A DNA stretch of 61,857 nt, from the IMG/VR virus record IMGVR_UViG_3300047462_000177, one strand, 5' to 3'. Positions 1 to 61,857 of the stretch are shown piece by piece. Position numbers and translations under genes: made by a program. Positions within the stretch are counted from its first letter, which is position 1; each line of letters begins with the position of its first letter. This DNA is from a virus. Under the pieces are notes generated by a model. The model saw nothing but the letters and a program-made list of their open reading frames with translations. It did not search any database and had not been told where the DNA came from.

Positions 1-624
1 TGTTGCTGTTGTTGCTGTTGTTGCTGTTGCCGTGCCCCCGCTGGACACGTTACTTAGCGGGGGTTTGGTTGCAGGAGAATTGTTTTCCGACATTGTGGTC
101 CCACCCGAAGTTACCTCGGTAACAGTGGAACTTGTTGCAGCCCCACCAACCATAGGCGTTGGAGCTGGTACAGGTGCCACAGGAGTAGGTGCTGGCGCGA
201 AGGCAGGAGCCACGGACTGGTTGGCGCTTAGAGAGGCCTGGTTCTGCTTGACCGCAGTATCAATTGCTGTCAGCTCTGCTAGGAGATTCGGATCGATGCC
301 CTGATTGGCGAGATTGGCGAGAGCCTGTGAGAGCTGGGTCTGGAGACTATTTATGTAGTTCACCAGAGAGTTGACCTGCCCTGCACTCACGATGAGATCA
401 GTCTTGAGGTCATTCATCTCTGCTTGGAGCAGTTGTGCTGTTGATTGATTTGACTGTGACATCTCTTCTAGCCTTTCCATGATGATCTTCAACATTTGCC
501 ACGTCATCACAGTTTCGTCTTCACCGCGATTACGTCGCATATCTATTGCCCGCTGATAGATCTGATTAAACCTATTCATGCTTGACATATATGGCATATG
601 ACTTGTGAAGGTAAATGCTGCCAT
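1..624 (-). CDS. hypothetical coiled-coil protein, N-terminal 208 codons of a junction-spanning ORF
   Basis: ATG at 624-622 with GGAAGG about 10 nt upstream. The frame stays open to base 1. It is absent from the supplied track because its stop lies past the window edge. It continues in frame at 61828 once the 29-bp terminal overlap is collapsed. Confidence 0.6.
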   Translation of the reverse strand, partial: MAAFTFTSHMPYMSSMNRFNQIYQRAIDMRRNRGEDETVMTWQMLKIIMERLEEMSQSNQSTAQLLQAEMNDLKTDLIVSAGQVNSLVNYINSLQTQLSQALANLANQGIDPNLLAELTAIDTAVKQNQASLSANQSVAPAFAPAPTPVAPVPAPTPMVGGAATSSTVTEVTSGGTTMSENNSPATKPPLSNVSSGGTATATTATTAT

Positions 625-653
625 CGTTATGTCTCGCCTTCCTAACTTATTGA

Positions 654-788
654 TAGGCCCTGTGGGATTCGAACCCACCTCTATCCTCTTGCAGGATTCC
701 CTTAGTCTTCTCGTTGCCGCTAAACAACTACCTAACTAAAGTCCTATAGCCGCGTACTATAGAAAGCTCACCATCAAGCTTAGGGCCC
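654..788 (-). tRNA. tRNA-like element, 135 nt, non-canonical (interrupted or extended)
   Basis: On the minus strand: 7-bp acceptor stem GGGCCCT/AGGGCCT, D-arm GCTT-GATGGT-GAGC with GG in the loop, and a perfect T-arm GTGGG-TTCGAAT-CCCAC (662-678). About 84 nt lie between the D and T arms instead of about 22. No canonical U33 anticodon loop and no encoded CCA. Confidence 0.45.
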
Positions 789-789
789 T

Positions 790-971
790 CTACGTTAGAT
801 ACATGAAGAGGAGCAGCCTGGGGTCAACAGACTACTCCTCTCACGGATCCCGGAAGGGCTAGGACAGCTGCCGAACAGATCAGCTCTCAGCCACCTCCAG
901 GTTCTAGCCTCCAGTAGGCGTCCAAAGAGGAGCTACCCCTACTGGAGACATCTCAAAACCAAGTGTTAGTG
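790..971 (-). ncRNA. structured non-coding segment between gene 972..1505 and the tRNA-like element
   Basis: The minus strand contains a perfect 10-bp stem CTCCAGTAGG/CCTACTGGAG, a 6-bp GGCTAG/CTAGCC stem and an 8-bp GAGAGGAG/CTCCTCTT stem. No ORF is present. Confidence 0.35.
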
Positions 972-1505
972 TTACGCAGTTTCGGCAATGGCTTCGAGCG
1001 CCACCGGAGGAACTTCAGCCGCAGCCGGCGCCGCATCTTCAGCAGGAGCAGGCTTCGGCTTGGGTTTGGTCGCCCCGAAGATGATCTGGTAGGGGATCGG
1101 TGCGCTGCCGGGAGTACGGAGTTCGTTGACCTCCTTAGTGATCGCAGAGCGCGTGGCACCCTCAGCGTACCGCTTCTTGATGTAGTCGACACGTGCCACA
1201 CCGTTCGTCAGCATGACTTTCGCACCTTCCTTCGCAGCCGGAAGATACTCAGGCTTGGGAACTTCTAGCGCCGCAGCTTCGGCTGCAGCCGTGGTCTCGC
1301 TCGCGGTCTCGCTCGCGGTGACAGGAGCAGTTGCGGGAGTGGCTTCAGCGATGGGAGCTTCGACATGGATATGAGTCGGCGCTGCCGGGGTGATGTGCTC
1401 GACATGAGCAGTGACTGGAGCGACATGAGCCGGAGCCTGAGCCGCCGGTGGAGTTTCCTGAGCTACAGTCTCCACGTGAGAGGTATCCTTGGTGTGAGCC
1501 TTCAT
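972..1505 (-). CDS. hypothetical DNA-binding protein, Ala/Pro/Thr-rich, with a C-terminal HTH-like 'YQ' domain
   Basis: The domain RVDYIKKRYAEGATRSAITKEV..IPYQIIF is paralogous to 15473..15667 and to the C-terminus of 10317..10853. Promoter at 1557-1586. Confidence 0.6.
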   Translation of the reverse strand: MKAHTKDTSHVETVAQETPPAAQAPAHVAPVTAHVEHITPAAPTHIHVEAPIAEATPATAPVTASETASETTAAAEAAALEVPKPEYLPAAKEGAKVMLTNGVARVDYIKKRYAEGATRSAITKEVNELRTPGSAPIPYQIIFGATKPKPKPAPAEDAAPAAAEVPPVALEAIAETA

Positions 1506-1556
1506 CTGGTGTATCCTTCAAAAAGAGCGCTAAGCTGTATGCTTGCTAACTCCTAG

Positions 1557-1586
1557 ATTATAGCTTAGACAATATAGGACAATCAA
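1557..1586 (-). promoter_or_regulatory. sigma70-type promoter (TTGATT-N18-TATAAT)
   Basis: -10 complement attata at 1557-1562; -35 complement aatcaa at 1581-1586; GGTGACC box upstream. Confidence 0.6.
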
Positions 1587-1645
1587 GTGAAATCTGATGG
1601 TCACCAAAAATCTCTTTTTCGAGACGCCCGCTCGAACTGTGGCCA

Positions 1646-1672
1646 GGCAGACGCCTGCGATGCACCGCGAGA
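1646..1672. repeat. GC-rich dispersed repeat family 1, copy A
   Basis: ggcagacgcctgcgatgcaccgcgaga is identical over 27 nt to 58492-58518. Confidence 0.85.
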
Positions 1673-1676
1673 ACCA

Positions 1677-1812: not shown

Positions 1813-4533
1813 CTATGTCGTATCTGCTTGATCGGGTTTGGGTGTGGGGAGCTCTGTGACGCGGTATGTTTGTTGGCCACTCTGTTCCCCAGCCATTCGG
1901 ACTCCGGCTGTGGACGCTATCAGACTGTAATGTGCCTTGAAATACCTGTCTAGGCGGCGAGCATTAGATAGGATAGGATTACTACGGAACTCACCCATCT
2001 CAACCCAAGCAACTATGTCTAGCATAGTGAAAAGATCCTGAGGACTGCCTTCTCGCCAATTAGTCGTGAACTCGATGATACCCTGAAGCACCCAATCGCT
2101 ATCCGTCGAGGCATTAAGCTGGATCTCCTTCACAGTCTTACGCACGAAGGATTTATCCATACCCACTACTCGAGCTGCAATACCTAAGGCTTGCTCTAGA
2201 TTGGCTAGGCGATGGATAGTATGGAAATTCTCATCCCAGCCACCTTCTTCGACAGGTTTGGCTGCCAACTTGAAGAACCTATGGAGGAATACCAATTGAT
2301 GGGCCATCCACATTTCTCGGCCACCAAACAATTCCATCTTCTTCCGCACCCAATCACTATCGGGGGCCTTGCCTAAGTTGCAAGTCTCGAATATGGTGGA
2401 TCTGGAGAAGAGGTCGGCATTCTGGAAGGGTTGTGTGACAGCTGTGAAACCGAACGTCACATCAACCGGGAATCGAATTAGATCGGCAGTAGTGTAGAGT
2501 TGTCGTACCTCAATCGTGGGATGCGGCTCTGTAGTGAGTCGACAGATCTCGTCTGACATCCTTTGCTTCAGGTCATTCTTGGTGAAGTGGACGTTATCAA
2601 TCACGTGTAGGCCGCCACTATTGGCAAGGGAAGCCTGCCAGTCCTTAATGTCATTAGGCAGATTACGCAGATGAGGACGACCTGTTAGGATATTTAGGCG
2701 CATCTCGTAGAGGCTAGACTTACCACTTCCAGGACCACCTATCATGATCTCCACAGGTAGTTGGATACCTTTCCAACGTTGGAGCCAAGGTGAGATGTAG
2801 TAAAGCAAGGTAGCTAACTCGCGCATACGATGCCCCTGAGGGCTTATCGGGATATCTAGTGAATCTACCTCATCAGGATTCTTATCAGGAAAGGCTGTCT
2901 GGAGGTCCTTCAAATTCCTGCCAATGTTAGTATCCTGGAGGATTTCCCACCACCAGGGTGCTAAAGGCCCTGGCTCCGCATTGATCTGCTCGAAAGCCTC
3001 TAAGACCGTATCTACGTCAAGGGGCTCGACATGATTCTGTTCGAAGAGCAAGCCTAGATCACCATTAGTGCAAAGCTTAATAGGCTCTTCTGTACTTGAT
3101 GAGACAGTGATGAAATTGCTGTCCCCTACTTGGATAGCTATACCATTTGGGTTAGTTGGATCTTCCTTCTCCGTTACTAATGCTCGTACGCGGCGAGGTG
3201 TCACATCCACGATGGGTTCTTCACCTGTAAACTGTGATGCCAACCATGTCAAGACTTTGATGTCACCAGCTCCTAGCCCAAATCTCTGGTACAGTAGGAC
3301 ACCAAAAGGAGTCTCATGCATGAACTGCCCACGACCATTGAGGATAGTAGCAGGCATTAACTTGTATGTCTCCCTGTTGTAGTAGTATGGCTGCCCTGAA
3401 TAAGTATCTCGGAATCGCATCCCATCAGAATCAAGCTCTGCCATGATAACATGGCCAATCTGCTGTGCTAGTTTTCGGTCTTGGAAGTTATTCAGTTGTG
3501 TCCCCAAGAACCCCTTTGAGTTAGGATGTCTAGGGAATTTAGTAGGATCATGGAAGATCTCATGCATCTCCCTGATTATCTGTGACGGCCCATGGATCAT
3601 CAAGTAGTCATCGAGGCCTGTCTTAGTATCCTCATCAGGATGCACTACAGCATCTGCAGGCCTATTGTGGATGTCTGGTAGGATCAACTGTCGGATGCGA
3701 GTTGCGGGCAAACCTAGGTATCGCAATTCATAGCCTAGCATAGTCAATGATCGTTGGATGTCTGCTTTCATTGTCCCGCCAATATCACTATCAAAGATTA
3801 GTACAGGCGTGATATTGAACTGGTTAATGACATCCATCATGTCTTGGAAGCCTTCAGCAAGTGTCATCATTTCAGGCAGTCTGGTATTGCTTCCAGGTAG
3901 CTTGGCTTTGATATCTTGCTTGTTGGAGGTAAGCTCTACTTCCTTTGGCAAGCTTATAGTCCGTGATTTCCAAGAGTCGACACCGCCAAGACCAACAGTA
4001 GGGATTCCCATCTTGGTAGCACAGGCAGCCTTCTTCTCTCCCTCGGTGATCACAAGCATGGCTTGTTGTGGCCACTTTTTCACCCAAGCAATCAGGGTGG
4101 CGTAGAACGCTGGAGGGAAATAGATATGGTTATTGGACTTAGTTGGCTGTCTGTACTTAGAGCCTGACACATTGCTGTTGAAGACCTTAACACGGTAGAA
4201 ATCAATTACAGCTCCTCTTATCGTGTAGTAGGGAATCTTATACCCATCAGCATTTAACGCACCAATAGACCTGCGCATATCAGCATTAAGGAACTGTACA
4301 TCTAGTTCCTCAGGTGTGAGACCACTCTTCGCTAAGTCCGCTATGACTCTTGGATCATATACCTGTTTTGGGTCCTTACCTGATTTTAGGTCAGTAAACA
4401 AGACAACGTTTCCTCCTAGGTCCTCCCCCGAGGGCCCAGAATTAACCGTATTAGGGTCCATTTTAGTTAGCCTCAGACTATAGACTCTTAGTTGCCTAGT
4501 TCCCCACAAAGCTAAGAGTCTGTCAACCCCCAA
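1813..4533 (-). CDS. bifunctional DNA primase / P-loop helicase (Toprim/DUF3854-like N-terminal half plus SF3/D5-like ATPase)
   Basis: ITEGEKKA..GLGGVDSW..IFDSD Toprim-like acidic motifs and a GGPGSGKS Walker A. The likely true start is the ATG at 4461 (MDPNTV) with GAGG upstream. Confidence 0.75.
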   Translation of the reverse strand: MGVDRLLALWGTRQLRVYSLRLTKMDPNTVNSGPSGEDLGGNVVLFTDLKSGKDPKQVYDPRVIADLAKSGLTPEELDVQFLNADMRRSIGALNADGYKIPYYTIRGAVIDFYRVKVFNSNVSGSKYRQPTKSNNHIYFPPAFYATLIAWVKKWPQQAMLVITEGEKKAACATKMGIPTVGLGGVDSWKSRTISLPKEVELTSNKQDIKAKLPGSNTRLPEMMTLAEGFQDMMDVINQFNITPVLIFDSDIGGTMKADIQRSLTMLGYELRYLGLPATRIRQLILPDIHNRPADAVVHPDEDTKTGLDDYLMIHGPSQIIREMHEIFHDPTKFPRHPNSKGFLGTQLNNFQDRKLAQQIGHVIMAELDSDGMRFRDTYSGQPYYYNRETYKLMPATILNGRGQFMHETPFGVLLYQRFGLGAGDIKVLTWLASQFTGEEPIVDVTPRRVRALVTEKEDPTNPNGIAIQVGDSNFITVSSSTEEPIKLCTNGDLGLLFEQNHVEPLDVDTVLEAFEQINAEPGPLAPWWWEILQDTNIGRNLKDLQTAFPDKNPDEVDSLDIPISPQGHRMRELATLLYYISPWLQRWKGIQLPVEIMIGGPGSGKSSLYEMRLNILTGRPHLRNLPNDIKDWQASLANSGGLHVIDNVHFTKNDLKQRMSDEICRLTTEPHPTIEVRQLYTTADLIRFPVDVTFGFTAVTQPFQNADLFSRSTIFETCNLGKAPDSDWVRKKMELFGGREMWMAHQLVFLHRFFKLAAKPVEEGGWDENFHTIHRLANLEQALGIAARVVGMDKSFVRKTVKEIQLNASTDSDWVLQGIIEFTTNWREGSPQDLFTMLDIVAWVEMGEFRSNPILSNARRLDRYFKAHYSLIASTAGVRMAGEQSGQQTYRVTELPTPKPDQADTT

Positions 4534-4573: not shown

Positions 4574-4909
4574 TTACCCGTACTGAGGACGCTGCTGGAT
4601 CTTGACCAGCTCATCAGCATTCGGCAGTCGAATGACTGTGTACGCTCTATTCTGACCAATAGGTGATACAGTTGTCCTCACCTCTCGGATGATCTTGCCT
4701 TCGCGGACGAGCTTCTCCAATACAGGACGCCACTCAACAGGCTTCACATGTGGTCCAATACCAGTGTGAAGCATGGTAGGCATCAGGATTGGGTACAGAG
4801 TCAGGACATGGATGATCCTCTTCTCCATTTCATCCATATCTTCGCCTGCCAGACGCTCGAACATCTGGTTTTTCTCGGCAGCCACTTTAACCGGATCCTG
4901 GTAGTTCAT
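4574..4909 (-). CDS. hypothetical protein, possible winged-helix
   Basis: 111-aa ORF. The C-terminal segment LEKLVREGKIIREVRTTVSPIGQNRAYTVIRL looks like a wHTH wing. Confidence 0.45.
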   Translation of the reverse strand: MNYQDPVKVAAEKNQMFERLAGEDMDEMEKRIIHVLTLYPILMPTMLHTGIGPHVKPVEWRPVLEKLVREGKIIREVRTTVSPIGQNRAYTVIRLPNADELVKIQQRPQYG

Positions 4910-4965
4910 TTGAGTATCCTCGTAAGGTAGGGTGTCAGAGTGTCAGAGTATGATGGTATCTGGTA

Positions 4966-4998
4966 GCTATTTGCGGCTATTTGCGGCTATTTACGGCT
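4966..4998. repeat. tandem repeat, 10-mer x3.3 (gctatttgcg)
   Basis: Sits between the stop of 4987..5367 and the start of 4574..4909. A second repeat, tgtcagag x2, lies at 4933-4948. Confidence 0.9.
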
Positions 4999-5367
4999 GA
5001 ACCGCATTTGCTCCATCTCGAGTTCGTATTCGACCTGAGACAGGAGCTCAGCACTGAGAACTTCTCGGCACTTCTCTGGGGAGATCCTCACCTGAGTGAC
5101 TTTCTCCCTTGTCATCTTGTAGACCTCGCCCGTAGCCTCCTTCTTGTCATCTAGACGTGCCTTCAAGGCTGTGCCTAGAAACTTGTCAGCCATTTCGAAG
5201 TGGGCTTTCCACTTTCGTATCCTCGCCACTTCATCGACCAAGGTCTCTGGCGTAGCATTTCCCAGTGAAGGGGGCACATACTTAGCTGGAGCCTCTGGTA
5301 GATCGATATTGGCAATCATGTAGGTAGCCACCTTCGCAGCTGTGGTCGTGCTCATTATGTTCTCCAC
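4987..5367 (-). CDS. hypothetical protein
   Basis: ORF with promoter 5378-5407. The likely start is the ATG at 5355 (MSTTTAAK) after GGAGAA. Confidence 0.6.
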   Translation of the reverse strand: MENIMSTTTAAKVATYMIANIDLPEAPAKYVPPSLGNATPETLVDEVARIRKWKAHFEMADKFLGTALKARLDDKKEATGEVYKMTREKVTQVRISPEKCREVLSAELLSQVEYELEMEQMRFSRK

Positions 5368-5377: not shown

Positions 5378-5407
5378 ATTATACTATAGGCATTCTAGGC
5401 TAATCAA
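5378..5407 (-). promoter_or_regulatory. sigma70-type promoter (TTGATT-N18-TATAAT)
   Basis: attata at 5378-5383 and aatcaa at 5402-5407. The upstream box ATAAAATTCCTC is shared with promoter 54955-54984. Confidence 0.6.
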
Positions 5408-5431: not shown

Positions 5432-5827
<396 letters not shown>

Positions 5828-52593: not shown

Positions 52594-52670
52594 CCTCCTT
52601 ATTGCAGTACCAGTACAGTGTCGTACTTGTTAACGGTCTGCATTAGGTTGCACAACCTTAGAAGGCTACA

Positions 52671-53759
52671 TCAGGTGGCCGGTGCTAATGTAGACTTTGC
52701 CACAGTCACTGGTGTGGCTCCTGACTTAGGCACTTCGCCCAACAACCCGACTTGCTTCAGGATTGACCCCATTGTCGGATTGTCGAAATAGTGGGGCTTG
52801 TACACGCTGAACCTCGACTTGGCTGCGTAGCGTGGCCCTTGTTGGATGTACATCCTCCTGGGAGGCGTTGTCTGATCATCAGCTGCCTGACCAATGATGA
52901 GATAGCCTACCATATCCATGAAGCCTTGAACTTGACTTCCAAGTTTGCCGGTCATCATAGGAGAATAGATCTGCCTCTTCAGCTCGTCCTGAACATACGC
53001 TCTCGCGGCGGTGAAGAGCACATGCATCGGGAGATCTCTAAAGTTGCGGATGAGGCGCTGCACCATCATGTGCTGCTGCCTGTATTGAGCCCACTCGGCG
53101 GCAGAACTCTCCTCGTCAATCTTCGTGGCGTCATTGACGCCGAGAAGCTGATTCATGCAATAGACTTCTACTTCGGTGAGAGAGTCTATGATGACCGTCT
53201 TGTATCTCCGCAGACGCTCTTCAGGTGCGTTAGGCATGATCACGTTCTGTAGGTTGCGAAGCTTCTGTTCTGCCTCTGGCGATGGGTCATCTCTGAACTG
53301 GCAATGGAGTTTCAGGTAGTCATAGACTCGGGCAACTGTAGCATAGTTACTTACGCGCACAGGATCGATGAGATGGAACTGATGATCAGGATCATAGAGT
53401 GTCAGTTCGCCACCTTCCGCGCTGATCATAATGACATCCCGCATCTCAGCGACATCTGCTGATGTACCGAAGAGCCAGGTCTTGCCTGCACCATACTCGC
53501 CATAGACCAAAGCCTTCAAGTAAGGCAGCCTAGGTCGATTGACGGGTACAATGAAGGGTGCCTTCCCTGCAACAGGTGACATAGGCGTAGCAGTGGACCC
53601 AGATGGGCTCCCTGGCTGGATCCCTCCAGCACCAGCACTAGCTGTGTGTGTGGTGCCTGTAGTTACCGACGGCGTCTTAGGTGGCGTGTCGGGGGTAGGA
53701 AGAGTTGTGTTGCTGGTTGTATATAGTCTTGTAGCGGTACTTGTAGGTGTCGTCGCCAT
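52671..53759 (-). CDS. AAA_24 / Sak4-like RecA-fold ATPase with a Thr/Pro-rich N-terminal extension
   Basis: Walker A YGEYGAGKT. The alternative ATG at 53582 would remove the 97-nt overlap with the upstream gene. Confidence 0.7.
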   Translation of the reverse strand: MATTPTSTATRLYTTSNTTLPTPDTPPKTPSVTTGTTHTASAGAGGIQPGSPSGSTATPMSPVAGKAPFIVPVNRPRLPYLKALVYGEYGAGKTWLFGTSADVAEMRDVIMISAEGGELTLYDPDHQFHLIDPVRVSNYATVARVYDYLKLHCQFRDDPSPEAEQKLRNLQNVIMPNAPEERLRRYKTVIIDSLTEVEVYCMNQLLGVNDATKIDEESSAAEWAQYRQQHMMVQRLIRNFRDLPMHVLFTAARAYVQDELKRQIYSPMMTGKLGSQVQGFMDMVGYLIIGQAADDQTTPPRRMYIQQGPRYAAKSRFSVYKPHYFDNPTMGSILKQVGLLGEVPKSGATPVTVAKSTLAPAT

Positions 53760-54931
53760 GATAGATCTTCCTCTCCACGGTCTATGGTACTATTCTCAAG
53801 CTCAAATTCCCAATCCGCACCATCATCCAAGTTGATACATGCGGCTTTCATATCACAGTCCCAGCTGCAATCTCTGGTGGGATTGGGAAACAATGCAAGA
53901 TTGGGGTTCAGCATCTCAGCTGACTCAGCCAAGATCTTCCAGCTCTCGTTGACTATCTGGTATTCATTCCGCTCAATGAAGTCCCTGCGAATGACTTTGT
54001 CAGCACACTTGGTCTCTTCAGAGGCTAAGTTGTTTAGGTATTGAACATTGATCCTAGGTGCTTTCTCAGCTGACCCATACATATTCACCAGAGCTTTCTT
54101 GTACAGAGCATGGGTGGTGTTCAGTGTCTTGGCGACACTAAACATCCCTGTGCTCTTGACAAATTCAGGTTCTCTGGGAACAGATTTCTTATGCTGCTGG
54201 TAGACGAAGCCAGCTACAGGCTGCTCGTAGATCTGTGTAGCTGCCCAGCAATAGGCTGTGATCTGGGGATCGGTATCCAAATGTGCTGTAATGATGTTCT
54301 TAGCTGTCTTATAGTCACAGAGCCATATACGGCCATATTCATCGAGGATGACACGATCAATGGTTCCGGTATAATAGCATTTGTCATAGCCATAGCTACG
54401 TAGTAGATCAGGATCAAGAGGGACTTCGATCTGGAAACGTACCTCAACTTGGGGTACTCCGTTGACAACGAGTGTTGTACCTGGATCTCTTGAGGAGAGC
54501 CACTCCTCGTAATAGTCGCACATCCCTTGACCAAGCTGTGTAAGCTCAGCTAAGTTAGGCGGCAACTCTAGTCCTTGGACTCGCTTAGAGGCATCTACAT
54601 ACCCCTCGAAGGCCATCCGAGCTGTAGGGAATCTCTTGTACCCGTGGTAGTCTTCAAAGGCATAATGAATGCCCGTACCAAACCACAAAGGGGCTTTGGC
54701 AAATCTACTAGTTCGATTTCCACGGTGGATGTATGACCAGCCAAACTTCCTTCGGCAACGCCGAAAGGTTGACCTATCACTCGTGCGAATATAAGCTACA
54801 CGAAGAGGCAGAGTCGATGTGCCCTGATCCTCCTCAATAGGAAGAGATATGAAATCGCCTATAGGTTCGCTATCGAAGCTTGACTCATGACTCTGACTCT
54901 CGGACACTGGCGATCCTATACATACACCCAA
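53663..54931 (-). CDS. PD-(D/E)XK nuclease, Cas4/AddB-like, with an Fe-S cysteine cluster
   Basis: IDRVILDEYGRIWLCDYKT (D..D/ExK), an N-terminal Cys in FRRCRRKFGW and the C-terminal CSWDCDMKAAC. Confidence 0.75.
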   Translation of the reverse strand: MGVCIGSPVSESQSHESSFDSEPIGDFISLPIEEDQGTSTLPLRVAYIRTSDRSTFRRCRRKFGWSYIHRGNRTSRFAKAPLWFGTGIHYAFEDYHGYKRFPTARMAFEGYVDASKRVQGLELPPNLAELTQLGQGMCDYYEEWLSSRDPGTTLVVNGVPQVEVRFQIEVPLDPDLLRSYGYDKCYYTGTIDRVILDEYGRIWLCDYKTAKNIITAHLDTDPQITAYCWAATQIYEQPVAGFVYQQHKKSVPREPEFVKSTGMFSVAKTLNTTHALYKKALVNMYGSAEKAPRINVQYLNNLASEETKCADKVIRRDFIERNEYQIVNESWKILAESAEMLNPNLALFPNPTRDCSWDCDMKAACINLDDGADWEFELENSTIDRGEEDLSWRRHLQVPLQDYIQPATQLFLPPTRHLRRRR

Positions 54932-54954
54932 AGGGTGGCTCTCACTATCTATAG

Positions 54955-54984
54955 ATTATACTATAGGTATTAGAGGTCAATCAA
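54955..54984 (-). promoter_or_regulatory. sigma70-type promoter (TTGATT-N18-TATAAT)
   Basis: attata at 54955-54960 and aatcaa at 54979-54984. A 20-bp AT-rich palindrome acctaaaaatatttttaggt lies at 55001-55020, flanked by GGTCACC direct repeats. Confidence 0.6.
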
Positions 54985-55036
54985 GAGGAATTTTATGGTC
55001 ACCTAAAAATATTTTTAGGTCACCATTACTTCACCG

Positions 55037-56482
55037 TCACCGTTCAGGTTTGACTGTCTTCAGCATCTGCCGTACTTGATCAATATCTCGTAGGATAGCC
55101 ATCACGTTGTTCACCTTAGTGTCCAAGGCATTCAACACCAGCTCGCTGTCAATCCCATCCTTGTAGCGGATGTAGTAGATATTGACTGGGTTGGAGATCT
55201 CACCTCTGTGTAGCCGATCTTCGGCTTGGAGATTGTCCCAAGCGTCCCACTCAAAGCCTAGGAAGACGCCCCACGTTGCAGGTTGCAAGTCGAAGCTCTC
55301 TGCATAGCGGATGGAACATAGAGCTATTCCTCTGACTCGTTTGAAGTAGGCAATTCGCTCTGAGAGCTCTTCGACTGTGAGCCCACCCCGAAGTATAGTG
55401 ATCTTTTCTGAATCAATTCCCGAAGCCAGTAGACGCTCACGAATAAAGGGCAGAGCACTAGCAAAAGGAGTAAATACTGCCATATGCTGGTCATCTGCAT
55501 CCTCCAAGAGTTCACTAAGCCTATCGAGCCCTGCACCCCAACTCGCTTCGGAGCTGAGTAGTTTAGGTGTCACCAATACTTGCCGCAATCTCTGAATCTT
55601 TGCCAGAATACTAGGTATAGTTATGACGCCTCCTGATGGCAGTTCTACAAGTTGCTCCTCAATGATACTATTATACATCTTGCGTTGGTCATCAGACATC
55701 TCCATGACATTGCTATCGAGGTCACGGACTTTAGGTGGCATCTGAGGTCTAACTTCAGCATTGGTACGTCGGATCATTACCTTGCTCAAGGACCTCTTCA
55801 GCTCCTCTTCATTCTGCGTTCCGTGAATCTCCACGCCATACTCGCCACGAGTCACAATGCAATAGCGTTCAAGGAAACGCCAATAGGACGTGTAGAGCTT
55901 TGGCCTGACGATGTTCAACGGGGCCCACATACTTTGTGGACCTCTACGAGCAATGCTACCCGAGGTGAGAGCTATGAAGCTTGCGTGCCGTGTCACAGCC
56001 TTCAGTGACTCGAAATTGCCGGACTTTCGGTTGGAGTCTTTGTGGCACTCATCCACAATCACAGCTTTGAACATATTCGGGTTCACGAAGCCAGATCGAA
56101 TATCCAGCTTCAATGACTCACGTGTTATGGCAACAAAGCCCAACCCATGTTTAGCCCACATCTCCTTGCGGATCTCTCGTGTCTTCCCTCGTATGATGAC
56201 AGGAGCAGGAGAACCCCAATCATCAGCTTGGTTCAACCAAGCTATCTGGGCATTGCGACCAGCAATCAGCAAGCAAGGCAAAGGGTAACCAGCAGCTCTC
56301 CAAGCCAGGTAGACTTCACCAGTCTTGCCTAGACCCATACCATCTGCGATGATCCCTTTGCAATTGGCCTCATTGATGAACCAGTTAACAGCCTCCAACT
56401 GGTAAGGCCTAGGTGTGACCTTAATGGGGAAACGGGTATTGTAGTTTGTGTTCCCGTACAAGAGCTCATGTATGTTTGCCAT
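55037..56482 (-). CDS. SNF2-family helicase
   Basis: Motif I DGMGLGKT and motif II VIVDECH, with C-terminal helicase motifs. Confidence 0.85.
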   Translation of the reverse strand: MANIHELLYGNTNYNTRFPIKVTPRPYQLEAVNWFINEANCKGIIADGMGLGKTGEVYLAWRAAGYPLPCLLIAGRNAQIAWLNQADDWGSPAPVIIRGKTREIRKEMWAKHGLGFVAITRESLKLDIRSGFVNPNMFKAVIVDECHKDSNRKSGNFESLKAVTRHASFIALTSGSIARRGPQSMWAPLNIVRPKLYTSYWRFLERYCIVTRGEYGVEIHGTQNEEELKRSLSKVMIRRTNAEVRPQMPPKVRDLDSNVMEMSDDQRKMYNSIIEEQLVELPSGGVITIPSILAKIQRLRQVLVTPKLLSSEASWGAGLDRLSELLEDADDQHMAVFTPFASALPFIRERLLASGIDSEKITILRGGLTVEELSERIAYFKRVRGIALCSIRYAESFDLQPATWGVFLGFEWDAWDNLQAEDRLHRGEISNPVNIYYIRYKDGIDSELVLNALDTKVNNVMAILRDIDQVRQMLKTVKPER

Positions 56483-56577
56483 TAGAACCTCCAGCCTAAG
56501 CCAATGTGCAAGTAGTGTGGGTGGAAAAGAAATACAGCCAGAAGCAGCAAGATGAGCACGACAAATAGCTTGTCCAT
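56482..56577 (-). CDS. 31-aa hydrophobic peptide
   Basis: Hand translation gives MDKLFVVLILLLLAVFLFHPHYLHIGLGWRF. AAGGAGG lies 9 nt upstream. Its TAATG overlaps the SNF2 start. It is below the track threshold. Confidence 0.45.
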   Translation of the reverse strand: MDKLFVVLILLLLAVFLFHPHYLHIGLGWRF

Positions 56578-56578
56578 A

Positions 56579-57520
56579 TCACATGTCCTCCTTGTGACGC
56601 CAGCCTACGAAGACTGGATGTCTTGCAACCTTATCTGTGCCATGTGGTAGGAACTTATACTTGAGGATCCTCCCCATGTAGTTCTGGGGGTTCATCCAGA
56701 TCTCTCGGCGCTCATCATGATTAAAGCCGCTGCCTACTCTGACTTCCCACCCATACTTAAGATCATTGATGATGACCCTACCCATCATGGCTAAGCCACT
56801 CTTGTTCTCCTTATGCGACGAACGCACCTGATAGCCTCTAGCATCAACCGTCGCTGGGTTGTCGTTATGTAGCATCTCCTCGAAGCCAGTGACAACACCT
56901 TCAGCGTCCTCCCAACGCTTGAGTTTACCCATCCCCCCTTCTTTTTCCGTTGAGCGGCCAAACTTGTAGTTGCTAGTGGGGGATCTAACAATAAGACCCT
57001 CATAGCCTTTCTCAACAGCAGCCTGCTCTAAGCTGATGAGGTCAGGCAGGCATTCGATCCTGAACTGTTCAACAGGCACTAATCTAAAACTTGTATGGTA
57101 CAGTACCTTTGCATCTCGGGCTTTGTCATAGAGGAACTTCTGACGCTCCTCGAATGTCATCTCATTCCTGACGATGTCGAAGGCATGGAACCAAGGGATA
57201 ACCGAGGCATCCGTTGTCATGATGCCTGACACAGTTCTCTTGAAGACATCATTGCCTGTTGGTAGGCCAATGATGAGTTCGCCATCAACCCCCTCTAATT
57301 GTGGGATGGCAAACAGTTCTTGTGCTCGTTGGCTCCTGATGAGCTTGCCCGACCGAGAGATCAGCTGCCCATTCATAACCGTAGCCCGGATACCATCTAG
57401 CTTGTAGCTAGCATAGATCCTCTTATGGAACTGTAGGAGTCTCTCAAAGATCCTGAGATCCCCATCATACGCCAACATAGGCCGAAAAGGTTTAATGTTC
57501 ACGTTCACGTTCTCATGCAT
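56579..57520 (-). CDS. ATP-dependent DNA ligase
   Basis: Adenylation motif SYKLDGIR (KxDG), EGLIVR, and an OB-fold region of appropriate size. Confidence 0.85.
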   Translation of the reverse strand: MHENVNVNIKPFRPMLAYDGDLRIFERLLQFHKRIYASYKLDGIRATVMNGQLISRSGKLIRSQRAQELFAIPQLEGVDGELIIGLPTGNDVFKRTVSGIMTTDASVIPWFHAFDIVRNEMTFEERQKFLYDKARDAKVLYHTSFRLVPVEQFRIECLPDLISLEQAAVEKGYEGLIVRSPTSNYKFGRSTEKEGGMGKLKRWEDAEGVVTGFEEMLHNDNPATVDARGYQVRSSHKENKSGLAMMGRVIINDLKYGWEVRVGSGFNHDERREIWMNPQNYMGRILKYKFLPHGTDKVARHPVFVGWRHKEDM

Positions 57521-58121
57521 CTTTTAGGTCTTTCACCTTTGTGCCGTCATTGTCTTTGTCGTTTTTGTTGAGCATCAGGCTATACCAAGTACCTGCTTTC
57601 ATTAGCCTGGCACGAAGGCTTTGGTACGACATACCTAACTCACGTGCTAGAGTAGCAGCCGGGATCCTCTTGCCTGTCTTGGGGTGCAGTACGTAGTGTG
57701 TGCATCGCTTGTTGCTACCCTGCTCTTCATAGGTTGCCCATCTGACATTACCAGGGACATAATGGCCATTAGGATCAATTCTGTCAAGAGTATGATTCCT
57801 ACTAGGACGTAAGCCGACATCTTTCAGGAACCACTCAAAAGCCTGTAGCTTCGTAGGACCTAGATCACTATGAGGATCATCTGCGTGGGTAGGCTGCCAG
57901 CGATCAAACACATGTATGCCTCGCCCACCATACTCGGCATAGCCCACGTGTTTAGGATTGTTGCACCGCTCAAGCATCATGGAGAAGGAATTGTAAGATA
58001 GCCTACGCAAGAAGCATCCACGATCGGCTTCCTTTTTCTTCCGGTTAGGTCTTTTGTGTATCTTCCTCTTGCGAGGCTTGCCCTTCACCAGATGCTCGTT
58101 GGTGGTCTTGTCGTCATCCAT
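57513..58121 (-). CDS. HNH homing-endonuclease-like protein
   Basis: SFSMMLERCNNPKHVGYAEYGGRGIHVFDRW, then LDRIDPNGHYVPGNVRWATYEEQGSNKR, then a C-terminal HTH IPAATLARELGMSYQSL. Confidence 0.7.
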   Translation of the reverse strand: MDDDKTTNEHLVKGKPRKRKIHKRPNRKKKEADRGCFLRRLSYNSFSMMLERCNNPKHVGYAEYGGRGIHVFDRWQPTHADDPHSDLGPTKLQAFEWFLKDVGLRPSRNHTLDRIDPNGHYVPGNVRWATYEEQGSNKRCTHYVLHPKTGKRIPAATLARELGMSYQSLRARLMKAGTWYSLMLNKNDKDNDGTKVKDLKDA

Positions 58122-58133
58122 GGTCGTGCTACC

Positions 58134-58469
58134 TTAGAGTGGTAGATAGCCCTGAGGGTGGGTGATCAGGGTCTGGGTTTGGGTCTGTTGTTGTTGTCGG
58201 CGCTGTTGCTTGTTCAGACGGTGGTCTTTGCAGCGTGAGATGTCTTTGTGGCCATACATCTCCACCAGGAGCTTCCGTACATACACACCCGGGCGTAAGC
58301 CCTTGTTGTGGGCTTCTTTCCTGAGAATGGCTTCCAGCCAAACAGGGACTCTCAAGGAGATAATGGTCCCTACGACCTGATCTGGCGGAAGCCTCCGCTC
58401 AGGGCGGGGATCTGTTCTAAGTCCACGGGTTCGATTTTTGTTAGTCACAGCCGTAATCTTCATGCTCAT
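58134..58469 (-). CDS. ribbon-helix-helix (CopG/Arc-like) DNA-binding protein
   Basis: IISLRVPVWLEAILRKEAHNKGLRPGVYVRKLLVEMYG. The start is set at the ATG at 58469 because the longer ORF begins inside repeat copy D. Confidence 0.55.
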   Translation of the reverse strand: MSMKITAVTNKNRTRGLRTDPRPERRLPPDQVVGTIISLRVPVWLEAILRKEAHNKGLRPGVYVRKLLVEMYGHKDISRCKDHRLNKQQRRQQQQTQTQTLITHPQGYLPL

Positions 58470-58629
58470 TCCCGCATCGGGGTGAATGTAGGGCAGACGC
58501 CTGCGATGCACCGCGAGACTTGTGGTAGCCATAGTAGGTACCTACTCCAAAGCCCCAGGCAAAGAATATGAGGAAGAGAGTTGTCTGTGCCCAGAACTTA
58601 GGCGTGTTGATGTCAGCGAAGATGCTCAT
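58441..58629 (-). CDS. small membrane protein whose C-terminal tail is encoded by repeat copy D
   Basis: TM segment TTLFLIFFAWGFGVGTYYGY. Confidence 0.4.
   Translation of the reverse strand: MSIFADINTPKFWAQTTLFLIFFAWGFGVGTYYGYHKSRGASQASALHSPRCGNEHEDYGCD
58479..58518. repeat. GC-rich dispersed repeat family 1, copy D
   Basis: 58492-58518 is identical to 1646-1672, and 58479-58505 is identical to 6877-6903. Confidence 0.85.
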
Positions 58630-58635
58630 GTTGTG

Positions 58636-59109
58636 TCATACCTCTTTCAGGAATTGACGGACTTCAAGGTCTCGTTCTTCACGTGGAATATCCGCGTAAA
58701 GGATGTTGGCTACCTGCCGATACGTTCGATAGGCAGCATACTCTAAAGGCTGTGTAGGCCAATTGAGATGTTGTGGAAACTGCCAAGCACAGTGGAAGAT
58801 ACTGCCTGCATGATAGTTCCCGATCCAGCATAGCAAGAAGAGCTGATCGCCATCCACCTTGTGGAGGTGTTCGAAGAACACAGCCCTCTCCAAGGATGGT
58901 TTCTTGTCGTAGTTCAGCCGTGTGTTGTAATTCCCCTCAAGGAATATCACACCGAAGGCAATCTTACGCAGCTCAAGGATGGACTTGTCTATCAGGTAGG
59001 CACCTCGTAGAGTAGGCCATTTGACAGCCTCGCCGCGTATAGCAAAGACAGGAGAGTTTAACAGAGGGATGCGATTCCTCTTTGGACCGGCCTTTCTGTC
59101 ACTCGGCAT
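58636..59109 (-). CDS. hypothetical protein
   Basis: 157-aa ORF. Confidence 0.55.
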   Translation of the reverse strand: MPSDRKAGPKRNRIPLLNSPVFAIRGEAVKWPTLRGAYLIDKSILELRKIAFGVIFLEGNYNTRLNYDKKPSLERAVFFEHLHKVDGDQLFLLCWIGNYHAGSIFHCAWQFPQHLNWPTQPLEYAAYRTYRQVANILYADIPREERDLEVRQFLKEV

Positions 59110-59133
59110 AGGATAGTCTCCACTCCTGGATGC

Positions 59134-59394
59134 TCATGAATTCTGACCCTCTCTTGGAGTCGCTACGCAAAGGAACTTCAAGTCAGCAGCATTTGTCACC
59201 AACACATAGCCTGACTTATGCATTGGTGCACTAGTGAATTCCTTCTTCCCGTCGCCACAATCGACACAAGATCTGTAGCCTAGAGCCCAACGCTTTGGAT
59301 TGACTTCTCCATCACACTTAGGCGATGTCTGCCTCTCACAGGCTGGCCATTTTTCACTTCCACTCCCACTTTCGCCTACATTCATACTCACCAA
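59134..59394 (-). CDS. C4 zinc-finger protein (TraR/DksA-like)
   Basis: CERQTSPKCDG..x17..CVDCGD. Confidence 0.45.
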   Translation of the reverse strand: MVSMNVGESGSGSEKWPACERQTSPKCDGEVNPKRWALGYRSCVDCGDGKKEFTSAPMHKSGYVLVTNAADLKFLCVATPREGQNS

Positions 59395-59738
59395 TCCCTA
59401 TCTAACACACGTGAGCCAACCAGCAGCTTGTACTTGTTAGGCCCTGCTGGATCTTTCACGTAGGTGATGGTGAGAAACATCTTCATGCTGCCTCTGAAGA
59501 GCTTCAGCATGTCTGCTTCTGCCTTGATCTCAGACATGACGCTCTTCTTCTTATTGTAGAGCAAGACAGTCTGGTATGGTAAGCCATTGCTGATCGACAG
59601 CTGAGCCTTGAAAATATCTCTCTTGCCAGCCATCGGCCAATCAGGATCAACACTTGCACCTGCTTTGGCTGTGACTGTGACTGTGATCTTAGGTAACCTT
59701 GCTCTGCATTTGAAATGCTTCTCACGAACCTGACTCAT
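59388..59738 (-). CDS. hypothetical protein
   Basis: 116-aa ORF in tight operon packing. Confidence 0.55.
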   Translation of the reverse strand: MSQVREKHFKCRARLPKITVTVTAKAGASVDPDWPMAGKRDIFKAQLSISNGLPYQTVLLYNKKKSVMSEIKAEADMLKLFRGSMKMFLTITYVKDPAGPNKYKLLVGSRVLDRDW

Positions 59739-60124
59739 TACCTCCTCACTTCCAAATTGTCGCCGAGCTGTCCGCCACGCTTTAATGCGTACAAGTAGTT
59801 TGTCACTTGACAGCGAACACGCTCTTGCTGCTCAGCCGTCGAAGCAACCTGCATCTTATTACGCCACCACCACTCCAGCCGCATCAGTTTCACCTGCGTC
59901 GAGACACCTTTCAGCGAAAGCCGAAATGTCTGCCAGACAGCATCTCGCACGCACCATACTCTGACTTGATCATGATTATATGACCCTAGCTGATACTTCT
60001 GTGCATCCCACTTCATTGGCATTCCACCATTGCGAGATTGCACCCGATCCTCAGCCTTGATCCAACCCTCTCCATTCAAAGCACTGATTGCCTGAGACAT
60101 CTTCTGTACCCCTTTCAGATACAT
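59738..60124 (-). CDS. hypothetical protein
   Basis: 128-aa ORF downstream of promoter 60144-60172. Confidence 0.55.
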   Translation of the reverse strand: MYLKGVQKMSQAISALNGEGWIKAEDRVQSRNGGMPMKWDAQKYQLGSYNHDQVRVWCVRDAVWQTFRLSLKGVSTQVKLMRLEWWWRNKMQVASTAEQQERVRCQVTNYLYALKRGGQLGDNLEVRR

Positions 60125-60143
60125 TATTTCCTCTTAACAACCT

Positions 60144-60172
60144 TATTATATATCAATTCTAAAAGGGTCTCA
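60144..60172 (-). promoter_or_regulatory. sigma70-type promoter (TTGAGA-N17-TATAAT)
   Basis: attata at 60144-60149 and tctcaa at 60167-60172, with a CATTTTGACCA box upstream. Confidence 0.55.
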
Positions 60173-60222
60173 ATGGTCAAAATGATTGTCTGTCCAAATT
60201 ATTTTTAGGTTTAGGCTCAGGC

Positions 60223-60939
60223 TCAGCCATTGTAGCCCCCCACTTGAGGGCTAATTAAGTTGAACATCTCCTGATCAAGTTTACATGGGTCAATGAAGCC
60301 GCGTTGAGCCATTACCTTGAGGATAAGAGCACAACGTGAGGTAGTATCAGTAGCAGGTACAACATAATAGCTGCGGCCGAGGTCTGTAAGAACACCCTGA
60401 AGTAGGAAGTCGAACATGACACGAGGACCAGGCAATGGTGTACGCATCCCGTCATCTGTATCTGGCCATGTACATAAGGGGAAATAGAAAATCATGTCAA
60501 AGCGGCTCATGGCATCGCTAGTCAGATCCAGTAGCCAATTAATCTTACTCTCATCCAGATATGTTGAGCAATACTGTAGAGCATAACAGAATTGATCCAA
60601 TTGTGTGCGGTCACAGATGAGGTTCTTGCCCCTACTCTCAAGTATCTTTCGATTATGGGCAAGTTGGATATTCTTCTGTAATGCCCATCGTTTAGTATCT
60701 GATAGACTATGTTGATCAGCTTCTGAAGAGATACCCATAGCAGCGAACACACTCCTACTGCTGCTGGGTAGGAACCCATAGCCATAGGGCTTCAAGTAAG
60801 TCGTGAGCATCAAAGCTGTAGTAGTCTTGCCTACACCTCCAGCCCCGCAGAAGCCAATGACTTTTGGATTGCTTTTTCCGGGTTCATCCGGGTAATCATA
60901 GTTATGGTTGTGGTTGTTATGGTTACGATTATCCGACAT
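60223..60939 (-). CDS. P-loop NTPase (AAA_28 / nucleotide-kinase-like)
   Basis: Walker A GFCGAGGVGKTT. The N-terminus is His/Asn-rich. Confidence 0.55.
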   Translation of the reverse strand: MSDNRNHNNHNHNYDYPDEPGKSNPKVIGFCGAGGVGKTTTALMLTTYLKPYGYGFLPSSSRSVFAAMGISSEADQHSLSDTKRWALQKNIQLAHNRKILESRGKNLICDRTQLDQFCYALQYCSTYLDESKINWLLDLTSDAMSRFDMIFYFPLCTWPDTDDGMRTPLPGPRVMFDFLLQGVLTDLGRSYYVVPATDTTSRCALILKVMAQRGFIDPCKLDQEMFNLISPQVGGYNG

Positions 60940-61489
60940 GGCGACCTCCTCCTCTCAAGGTTTTGTTTGGGACAGCTATCTTGACTATGTTCTCACTCGT
61001 CCGAGTCTTGGGTGGGAACAGAATGTAGTATGCTGCATGTCTGACAGCATCACGTGCATGACGCTGTCCTGTTGCATACATGCCCCACTCTCTGAGCTTG
61101 TCATCAGTACAGAAATACTTTGCAGTACCTGCAGGCTGTTTATGGAATGGGATCTTACGCTGCATGCATAAGGTCTCAATCATCCCTATCAGTCGGGGAG
61201 TCTGCAAGGATGATCCAGCATGCTGCTCAACTCGATTGGCGTATACACGGTAGTCTTCAAGGACTACCTCTGTAGGACGCTGCTGATCGAAGAACAGTGT
61301 GAGTTGCTCTAAGGCAACATCAGGCATGCTTGTGTTGAGTTGTGCAGCCATATGTAGGCTGAGCCTACGAAAGACAGCCACACCTGTGGTGGCTCCTGGA
61401 TCAAGACTGACTAATCTTTCCGGTGGTGGCCTAATCTTTAAGGCATTCAAGGCATTATTATAGATATGCTCAAAGCTTGGCATAACCAA
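60929..61489 (-). CDS. RuvC-like Holliday junction resolvase
   Basis: VSLDPGATTGVAVF, LEDYRVY and RHARDAVRHAAYY are RuvC-fold catalytic blocks. Confidence 0.7.
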   Translation of the reverse strand: MVMPSFEHIYNNALNALKIRPPPERLVSLDPGATTGVAVFRRLSLHMAAQLNTSMPDVALEQLTLFFDQQRPTEVVLEDYRVYANRVEQHAGSSLQTPRLIGMIETLCMQRKIPFHKQPAGTAKYFCTDDKLREWGMYATGQRHARDAVRHAAYYILFPPKTRTSENIVKIAVPNKTLRGGGRHVG

Positions 61490-61540
61490 CCTCCACCTTA
61501 GCTACAGTCTAGTGTAGTCTGCTAGCCCTATCTAGTCTAG

Positions 61541-61566
61541 TTCCTATTACCCCCGTAATAGGAACC
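61541..61566. other. perfect 11-bp hairpin (gttcctattac-cccc-gtaataggaac) in a 285-nt non-coding gap
   Basis: Read directly. A tatcaggt x2.7 tandem repeat lies at 61689-61710 in the same gap. Confidence 0.5.
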
Positions 61567-61774
61567 GTTCGCACACGTAGTCGCTATCGGAGTCAACGCT
61601 ACATGACTTAAGTCTACAAACACCACGGCCCTACAGTGCTGTCCCTTGGTACCCACGACTCCGTGCAGATATCCAAGGTAATGCAGACTATCAGGTTATC
61701 AGGTTATCACCTCGCGGAGTAACACACCTGTCAGTATGCCCTCAGCTGCGCCAGTAACCCGATTCGTGAAACTG

Positions 61775-61828
61775 CTAGGTAGCTGTTGAGGCTCCGCCCG
61801 ATGTTGTCGGAGCTGCAACTGTTGCTAC
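61775..61828 (-). CDS. C-terminal 17 codons plus TAG stop of the junction-spanning ORF
   Basis: Hand translation from 61828 downward gives VATVAAPTTSGGASTAT then TAG (complement of cta at 61775-61777), in frame with 1..624. Confidence 0.5.
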   Translation of the reverse strand, partial: VATVAAPTTSGGASTAT

Positions 61829-61857
61829 TGTTGCTGTTGTTGCTGTTGTTGCTGTTG
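61829..61857. repeat. 29-nt terminal overlap identical to bases 1-29 (circular closure or assembly redundancy)
   Basis: tgttgctgttgttgctgttgttgctgttg is present at both ends. It is itself a 9-mer x3 tandem repeat. Confidence 0.8.

Follow-up and report, generated by a model that had tools for sequence, protein, structure and literature searches.

Genome organization

The 61,857-bp stretch of viral DNA analysed here (IMG/VR record IMGVR_UViG_3300047462_000177; hereafter, the window) represents the whole genome, or nearly the whole, of a tailed phage that has not been cultured and that carries many short tandem arrays, both between its genes and in frame within them (Table 1). The coding fraction of the window is 0.90. 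Leftward genes run from ~13.5 kb down to position 1 and include a DUF3854 primase-like gene (906 aa, 1813-4533); these are followed by a gene-poor stretch (13505-16068), a rightward structural module (16069-42816; TerL at 18106-20112, portal at 20342-22069 and an RcGTA-like tail module) and a leftward replication and nucleotide module (42970-61489), which encodes PolA, an SNF2 helicase, a PD-(D/E)XK nuclease, an AAA_24 ATPase, a DUF669 protein, an ATP-dependent ligase and a queC-queD-queE-folE operon. The first 29 nt of the window are identical to the last 29 nt (1-29 and 61829-61857), with both ends lying in one TGTTGCTGT array. A minus-strand open reading frame (ORF) is continuous across the circular junction, which supports closure; the copy number of the junction array is not fixed by the assembly, the circular overlap being just 29 bp within a tandem array.

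Array excess

Tandem Repeats Finder (TRF) returned 75 rows for the window, which merged into 59 arrays. An earlier sequence-only reading had listed 18 arrays, 17 of which were recovered by TRF within 1-3 nt; the remaining one (44848-44876) is a degenerate GTTTAG x2 with one separated copy and falls below the TRF threshold. Against 100 block-wise dinucleotide shuffles, the window was strongly enriched at every score (59 arrays versus 9.8±3.0 at a score of at least 30; 22 versus 0.2 at a score of at least 50, termed strong arrays below; 7 versus 0 at a score of at least 80). Because shuffles are a weak null, baselines of real DNA were also built. Relative to a phage DNA set of 259 kb, made up of four cultured phages plus seven IMG/VR contigs, arrays were 1.7x as dense at scores of at least 30, 5x at scores of at least 50 and 13x for perfect arrays with at least three copies, of which the window holds 12. 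Relative to 66 prophage-region loci of GTDB genomes that surround related TerL genes (1.24 Mb in total), the density of strong arrays was 3.56 per 10 kb in the window, compared with a median of 0.68 and a maximum of 2.8, and that of perfect arrays was 1.94 per 10 kb, compared with a maximum of 0.94. The window thus exceeded all 66 real loci by both measures, bearing out the view that this density is unusual for a compact phage.

The excess was specific to higher copy numbers. When exact tandem runs with periods of 5-20 were counted against 1.50 Mb of real DNA, two-copy runs occurred at the baseline rate (16.8 per 10 kb in the window versus 16.1), whereas runs of 3-3.9 copies were 16x over-represented and those of at least four copies 14.5x; in total, 18 runs of at least three copies were observed versus ~1.2 expected (about 15x). 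Because two-copy runs are at baseline while longer runs are so over-represented, the anomaly is one of expansion or retention of multi-copy arrays, not of commoner duplication.

The units of different arrays are mutually unrelated, except for CTGTTG and TGTTGCTGT and for TTAGC and a variant unit of the AACCT array, which argues against a single binding motif or a mobile element; a shared unit family was likewise rejected, with just these two unit pairs related. Helical phasing (a period of ~10 bp) was also dropped, period 10 showing no specific enrichment over controls. Units run head to tail throughout without spacers, unlike CRISPR arrays, in which unique spacers of similar length would separate the repeats.

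Placement and reading frame

Arrays were enriched in non-coding or boundary DNA (23 of 59 versus 6.1 expected, P = 7 × 10−9), at 3.6 per kb of non-coding compared with 0.65 per kb of coding sequence (5.5x). This enrichment remained, at a modest level, outside the 13.5-16.07 kb region (9 of 45 arrays versus 3.2 expected, P = 0.004). The sequence-only reading had placed the repeats at gene boundaries across the genome. The boundary part of that description largely restates where a compact genome has non-coding DNA; coding arrays showed just a weak bias toward gene ends (10 of 33 within 60 nt versus 5.3 expected, P = 0.03). The genome-wide part was overstated: the excess is regional, with 18 of the 22 strong arrays in an arc that starts at 61.8 kb, crosses the junction and ends at 16.5 kb (27% of the genome), and 20-60 kb is near baseline, perfect arrays excepted.

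Within genes, most arrays keep the reading frame. Periods divisible by three account for 31 of the 36 coding arrays and 8 of the 23 non-coding ones (Fisher P = 7 × 10−5); the five coding exceptions are two-copy matches scoring 31-44, at or near chance level, and all 11 coding arrays scoring at least 45 are in frame. The in-frame arrays encode flexible, low-complexity peptides, namely (EP)n, (SQS)n, (GTT)n, (SN)n, (EA)n, (TQ)n and (KGGG)n.

Table 1 Tandem arrays, conserved promoters and associated elements in the window. Strand is given in brackets; arrays were identified by TRF, except the inverted copy at 14478-14503; L-numbers are independent contigs that end within the array.
Position (strand)	Feature	Context	Contig ends
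61814-61857 + 1-29 (-)	one junction array, TGTTGCTGT x4.2 and x3.2	in frame, Thr/Ala-rich C-terminal tail of wrap-around ORF	
1293-1319 (-)	12-mer x2.2	in frame, (SETA)n	
1557-1586 (-)	conserved promoter		
4932-4949	GTGTCAGA x2.2	intergenic, 22 nt upstream of start of gene 4574-4909	
4966-4998	GCTATTTGCG x3.3	overlaps stop codon of gene 4987-5367	
5378-5407 (-)	conserved promoter		
5449-5488 (-)	hexamer x6.7	in frame, (EP)n, stop codon 17 nt away	L104
11386-11415 (-)	conserved promoter		
11573-11612 (-)	18-mer x2.2	in frame, (PKGTQS)n close to C-terminus	
12293-12326	GT-rich (sense CA-rich) period-11 array	fills whole 32-nt gap between two minus-strand genes	
13518-13543 (-)	CTGTTG x4.3 (sense CAACAG)	5' leader of gene 12326-13504; polymorphic	
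13552-13580 (-)	conserved promoter	TTGATT-N17-TATAAT	
13660-13713	CTCTGCTTTG x5.2	AT-rich block, control region	
13735-13759	TTGTTCTACT x2.5	control region	
14043-14071	TACAATGTAA x2.8	control region	
14096-14135	CAAACCGTTC x4.0	adjoins first GGACTAGTCC palindrome	
14263-14316	GGACCAGAC x2.8 and GGCCTT x3.3	within palindrome cluster 1	
14412-14477	CAACAAAGT x7.3, 27-nt higher-order unit	iteron-like 9-mer array; polymorphic	
14478-14503	inverted partial copy of 14412-14477 9-mer array	hairpin/cruciform with array, z=-5.7 and -4.8	
14676-14700 (-)	CCTGACC x3.6 (sense GGGGTCA)	downstream of promoter 14735-14764	
14735-14764 (-)	conserved promoter		
14735-14807 (-)	promoter with upstream box CACATTAACAA-NN-ATTAAT	inverted copy of 16005-16067, ~70 bp each	
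14900-14945	14-mer x3.3	within palindrome cluster 2	
14995-15025	GTCCTGCCTG x3.4	control region	
15421-15471	TTAGC x10.2 (sense GCTAA)	from stop codon of 64-aa helix-turn-helix-like gene to 27 nt upstream of next start	
15753-15813	15-mer x2 and 11-mer x2	AT-rich divergent region	
16005-16067 (+)	promoter with upstream element	drives structural module	
16038-16067 (+)	conserved promoter		
16285-16324 (+)	AGCCAGTCG x4.4	in frame, (SQS)n, variable linker of gene upstream of TerL	L009, L015
16438-16474 (+)	GGCACCACT/CAC array	in frame, (GTT)n and T5, same linker as 16285-16324	
17741-17763 (+)	ACAGTA x3.8	in frame, (SN)n	
22065-22083 (+)	ACTAACCC x2.4	straddles portal stop codon	
34294-34417 (+)	54-mer x2.3	in frame, N-terminus of DUF2460 tail protein	
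36061-36084 (+)	TGAAGC x4	in frame, (EA)n, NlpC-like protein	
36754-36794 (+)	15-mer x3	in frame, (KGGG)n, 1387-aa tail protein	
47555-47577	TGCCTCACT x2.6	between 83-aa gene and PolA start	L018
49519-49551 (-)	TCGGCT x5.5	in frame, (EA)n, N-terminal linker of GTP cyclohydrolase I	L017, L107
51880-51930 (-)	AACCT x10.2 (sense AGGTT)	5' leader of queC-queD-queE-folE operon	L107, L108
54955-54984 (-)	conserved promoter		
61689-61709	TATCAGGT x2.6	intergenic	

Independent assemblies and copy-number changes

Twelve contigs from independent assemblies of at least four samples (Logan ERR9963787 and ERR9963788; ENA/JGI/NCBI ERZ12294693; JGI 3300056962) cover ~52 kb of the window at identities of at least 99.8%, and every array that they span was reproduced. 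Across this comparison, there were four substitutions and just two indels, both of them whole-unit changes inside arrays: a gain of 12 bp (two hexamer units, GTAGCAACAGCA) at 13518-13543 in contig L103 (sample ERR9963788), and a loss of 9 bp (one TTGACTTTG unit) at 14412-14477 in contig L014 (sample ERZ12294693), the latter with 0 substitutions over 2,069 bp. The sequence-only reading had called for copy-number polymorphism to be sought in raw reads and related genomes and had suggested that the arrays could be slippage-prone; the two differences between samples, together with an excess confined to at least three copies, agree with that suggestion, and because two arrays differ by whole units between samples the arrays are real and, we consider it likely, fast-mutating slippage loci. 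Length variants were absent from the 90%-identity cluster members of the array-bearing proteins, all of which are singletons, and two further pairs of contigs (L012/L013 and L010/L011) were identical or differed by one substitution, with no indels, and so say nothing on polymorphism.

The opposite view, that the arrays are products of assembly or of chance, is effectively refuted. It could draw on the two window ends falling in one array and on the many short-read contigs that break at arrays, but identical array sequences recur in independent assemblies of several samples, the in-frame constraint holds, and the excess is very large over both the shuffles and 1.5 Mb of real DNA. Contig ends do concentrate in the arrays (13 of 23 ends, in features that make up 2.9% of the genome; Table 1), and contigs L104 and L105 both end at the junction array, at exactly the same base. 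At k=31, the Logan k value, the 33-bp TCGGCT and 23-bp TGCCTCACT arrays are too short for repeated k-mers, so breaks there hint at within-sample heterogeneity.

Array richness among relatives

Relatives were fetched by their TerL proteins (52-65% identical; other samples, GC content 51-57%) and compared over TerL±10 kb. Arrays per 10 kb at scores of at least 30, 40 and 50, respectively, were 13.2, 8.2 and 5.9 for the window; 11.3, 8.1 and 6.3 for L001; 9.6, 5.7 and 5.1 for L111; 8.3, 7.0 and 5.1 for L110; 8.2, 4.5 and 3.2 for L012; 7.7, 3.2 and 1.4 for L109; and 3.7, 1.4 and 0 for L010. Five of the six relatives were therefore array-rich, with pentamer and hexamer arrays of their own (CTTAT x6.6, TAGCC x5.4, CTCCTA x9.8 and GGGTTC x14.3), and in every relative the gene-poor stretch that lies upstream of the structural module holds arrays as well. 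On these comparisons, array richness is a clade-level trait. The gene directly upstream of TerL offers the clearest instance: a variable linker of 55-170 aa follows right after a conserved N-terminal block and holds different in-frame arrays at the same position (AGCCAGTCG, AGGCAGACG, GAGGAACCA and GGGTTC in the window, L001, L012 and L110, respectively), which makes it a recurrent expansion hotspot in a tolerant segment. Contig ends of relatives also fall in repeats: L109 starts inside a CCTTCTCTG x3.3 array (1-30), and a long, GGC-rich block of repeats coding for Gly closes L001 (15182-15583).

A trait shared by several related phages from different samples could also be the footprint of a host-specific process that generates or tolerates repeats (for example, a deficiency of the host replisome or of repair, of the kind seen in repeat-rich bacteria), an option that the sequence-only reading had raised, since these phages may share a host group, and the lack of the trait in L010 would fit a difference in hosts. 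We think this explanation unlikely. TerL relatives in GTDB genomes (45-56% identity) are spread over many phyla and no tRNAs were found in the window, so that no host was inferred; a polymerase, a ligase, a helicase and recombination proteins are all encoded by the phage itself, such that host replication may be dispensable; and its sole 7-bp array does not match the heptamers of cyanobacterial short tandemly repeated repetitive (STRR) sequences.

The gene-poor control region

The gene-poor stretch at 13505-16068 (2.56 kb), between divergent gene blocks, holds 14 TRF arrays (5.5 per kb) and is of another nature than the dispersed arrays. AT-rich blocks lie at 13500-14100 (GC content 0.29-0.41) and 15600-16100, the former carrying several 10-bp arrays and three 23-bp direct repeats (CCTCAATTTGGATGTAG..., 13863-13940, with spacings of 23 and 32 bp). 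Eight GGACTAGTCC palindromes (at most one mismatch) occur at 14136-14975 in two GC-rich clusters of four and nowhere else in the 62 kb, and the loci of the relatives lack them. These palindromes probably serve a dimeric DNA-binding protein as operators, and that protein may be the adjoining 64-aa helix-turn-helix (HTH)-like one (15473-15667). Between the two palindrome clusters sit the polymorphic 9-mer x7.3 array and its inverted partial copy; the array consists of direct repeats of one unit, is non-coding and lies beside an AT-rich block, as expected of iterons. Taken together, the layout would resemble an origin with an operator region.

Three small minus-strand genes (15077-15667) form a mini-operon in the order 64-aa HTH-like gene, (GCTAA)10, 48-aa gene and 57-aa gene. 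The last unit of the CCTGACC array provides an AGGAG ahead of a possible 65-aa ORF (14474-14671). Two longer ORFs (14074-14412 and 14474-14728) were rejected as genes; they contain period-10 and period-7 arrays.

A conserved promoter, TTGATT-N16-19-TATAAT, has seven exact matches in the window versus 0.02 expected, all of them intergenic and co-oriented with downstream genes. The two ~70-bp elements that combine this promoter with an upstream box are inverted relative to each other and flank the block of the HTH gene and small genes, one facing the structural module and the other the region of palindromes and iteron-like repeats. Two of these promoters (5378 and 11386) have just 5-11 nt between the end of the -10 box and the annotated start codon, so their mRNAs may be leaderless or have very short leaders.

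Leader arrays

The CAACAG array begins 6 nt past the -10 box and stops 13 nt short of the start codon of the HNH-like gene (12326-13504), and its position between the two means that its copy number alters leader length. One reading is that leader and gap arrays have been selected as heritable tuners of expression that can be reversed rapidly, like the contingency loci of bacteria but in a phage, with copy number setting leader length or spacing and hence expression of early genes and of the 7-deazaguanine operon. This array, which is polymorphic and placed exactly between a conserved -10 box and a start codon, speaks for such tuning, as do the long pentamer arrays, one in the queC leader and one separating the HTH gene from the gene that follows it, and the high purity of the arrays (12 perfect arrays with at least three copies); the excess of arrays with at least three copies could likewise stem from selection for length. 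However, none of the seven conserved promoters has an array in its -35/-10 spacer, and the strong coding arrays are all in frame; a classic ON/OFF phase-variation switch is thus not evident; 36 of the 59 arrays are coding, the units are unrelated, and the leader arrays have no unusual RNA structure. We therefore doubt that the arrays are tuners of this kind. A broader version, in which a clade of ~60-kb phages has evolved or tolerates an expansion-prone genome and uses leader arrays as rapidly mutable expression rheostats (CAACAG before the HNH-like gene, (AGGTT)10 in front of the 7-deazaguanine genes and (GCTAA)10 behind the HTH gene), strikes us as doubtful too. If true, it would amount to a phage-encoded analogue of bacterial contingency loci, with standing variation in early-gene and DNA-modification levels across phage populations.

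The sequence-only reading had also suggested that the arrays could act as spacers or insulators. This found no support: folding of leader-array RNA was no better or worse than that of shuffles (z of -1.5, -0.2, -0.2 and +0.6), and a role through RNA structure or insulation was set aside. The tract that fills the gap at 12294-12325 is CA-rich in the sense direction, with no Shine-Dalgarno sequence and zero predicted structure; other genes, queC and that at 22115 among them, have AGGAG-type sites, unlike the gene that follows this gap.

In the queC leader, (AGGUU)10, or (UAGGU)10, presents ten UAG triplets with 2-nt spacers, the geometry of a site for the trp RNA-binding attenuation protein (TRAP), in which 9-11 (G/U)AG triplets are spaced by 2-3 nt and bound by a ring protein. 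None of the 10 small ORFs tested had a TrpBP-like Pfam match; searches of the control region and of the queC leader gave neither a preQ1 riboswitch nor any other Rfam family. The array bears on a further general explanation, that the arrays are platforms for binding of protein or RNA, whether iterons, operators, a packaging site or a site for a ring protein such as (UAGGU)10. The geometry of these triplets would suit it, as would the control region, where seven 9-mers and an inverted copy of them (z=-5.7) occur together with 23-bp direct repeats, eight clustered palindromes and an AT-rich block, and the presence of arrays in the equivalent gene-poor region of relatives. Yet units differ between arrays, most arrays are coding or distant from the control region, neither TRAP-like nor further RNA-binding families turned up in the small ORFs tested, Rfam gave no match, the candidate iteron array is itself variable in copy number, and the primase-like gene lies ~10 kb off. 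As an account of the arrays in general, this is improbable. The suggestion of protein-binding arrays made by the sequence-only reading is plausible for the 13.5-15.1 kb control region, with its iteron-like 9-mer, inverted copy and palindromes, and implausible genome-wide, where units are unrelated and 36 of 59 arrays are coding.

Other genes and sequence neighbours

Megablast of 10.6 kb of the window against INPHARED gave no match, and the phage thus has no annotated close relative there; the top TerL identity in INPHARED was 47%. An exact 24-mer scan of JGI metagenome contigs gave no match, no QueC relatives were found in IMG/VR, and no Rfam families were found in the window.

A full preQ0-type 7-deazaguanine synthesis operon lies at 48921-51837 (-), comprising queC, queD (PTPS), queE (radical SAM) and folE (GTP cyclohydrolase I); because the operon is complete, the virion DNA is probably 7-deazaguanine-modified. 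A DpdA/TGT-like family was not detected in the adjoining 265-aa ORF (47825-48622). The family-A DNA polymerase (44877-47546 (-)) carries a UDG-superfamily domain at its N-terminus, in fusion with the 3'-5' exonuclease domain and the polymerase domain. Recombination-type genes at 52671-54931 and 52060-52593, for the AAA_24 (Sak4-like) ATPase, the PD-(D/E)XK nuclease and the DUF669 protein, adjoin those for the SNF2 helicase and the ATP-dependent ligase. The tail-tip module (34243-40749) is like that of RcGTA/phiJL001-type siphoviruses, with DUF2460, Phage_BR0599, an NlpC-like hydrolase and Phage-tail_3 with fn3.

Interpretation and significance

We consider it likely (probability roughly 0.7) that the arrays are slippage-type, expansion-prone variable-number tandem repeat (VNTR) loci, filtered by selection and characteristic of the clade, with some control-region arrays probably functional. 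According to this explanation, the arrays would be VNTR- or minisatellite-type loci that arise when strands slip in replication or anneal unequally, in a lineage of phages unusually prone to expand short direct repeats after two copies exist. Selection would then set which arrays survive, with any period allowed in gaps, 5' leaders and the gene-poor control region, and survival within genes limited to periods divisible by three, chiefly in disordered linkers and termini. The molecular cause may lie in the replication and recombination proteins of the phage, candidates being the family-A polymerase, the Sak4-like AAA_24 ATPase, the PD-(D/E)XK nuclease and DUF669, the last three of which could contribute to repeat expansion via strand annealing. 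Most dispersed arrays would be neutral or nearly so, and a subset in the 13.5-15.1 kb control region may be protein-binding repeats of an origin or operator region, as suggested by the 9-mer array and its inverted copy beside an AT-rich block, flanked by palindromes.

Several observations weigh against this explanation. The excess is packed in one 27% arc, a pattern that a purely genome-wide mutational bias would not predict unless regional tolerance differs strongly; no slippage-promoting factor was identified; and selection for longer arrays would give the same excess of arrays with at least three copies. Relative L010 is without the trait. There are just two polymorphisms, with the other shared arrays identical between samples that are >99.9% identical, such that rates are poorly constrained, and many contig breaks are accounted for by graph loops at k=31, not by heterogeneity.

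The array density is real and statistically strong, but regional, and nothing so far marks the arrays as a novel class of regulatory element. Should they be no more than tolerated, neutral slippage products, they are a well-documented oddity with no new mechanism. If, instead, the trait is caused by the replication and recombination proteins of the phage, these phages would offer a natural setting in which to study the determinants of tandem-repeat expansion rates, and would show the speed at which linkers can be remodelled in virion and packaging proteins. There are also practical consequences: short-read assemblies of these phages break at arrays (as at the 13 of 23 contig ends above), 'complete circular' calls can rest on a 29-bp overlap within a repeat, making copy numbers at such junctions unreliable, and the arrays would be good strain-typing markers for these phages in metagenomes.

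Comparison with known systems

The arrays share most with bacterial VNTR or minisatellite loci, as used in multiple-locus VNTR analysis (MLVA) typing: units of 5-54 nt run head to tail, positions are intergenic or in frame in low-complexity sequence, and strains differ by whole units, VNTRs arising by slippage or unequal recombination. Unlike bacterial VNTRs, they occur in a compact, lytic-type phage genome, at ~15x the usual density of arrays with at least three copies and as a clade-level trait. In the contingency loci of Haemophilus, Neisseria and Moraxella, 7-bp repeats lie upstream of hmw1A/hmw2A and AGAT repeats in the uspA2 leader; the window likewise has short 5'-leader arrays, one of them polymorphic between promoter and start codon, but it has no promoter-spacer array, no out-of-frame coding array and no ON/OFF logic. 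Iterons are known from phage and plasmid origins, including the lambda ori, the octamers of the P4 ori/crr and plasmid iterons. The control region resembles these in its tandem 9-mers (x7), inverted copy, AT-rich block and non-coding setting, with relatives' arrays at the same genomic position, and differs in having one or few putative arrays only, no adjacent initiator gene and a polymorphic copy number. Cyanobacterial STRR sequences are short tandem intergenic repeats dispersed over the genome, as are those here, and belong to conserved families of heptamer units, whereas the units in the window are unrelated and include a single period-7 array (CCTGACC). Among phages, a survey of mycobacteriophages for simple sequence repeats (SSRs) found ~78% of SSRs to be coding and pentanucleotide repeats to be the rarest class, with 17 motifs in the whole set, and phage SSR surveys show hexamers and trimers to be favoured in coding DNA (PMC6426759). 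Because pentamers are so rare and coding positions so prevalent in that survey, the two 10-copy pentamer arrays of the window and its 5.5x non-coding enrichment are unusual among phages.

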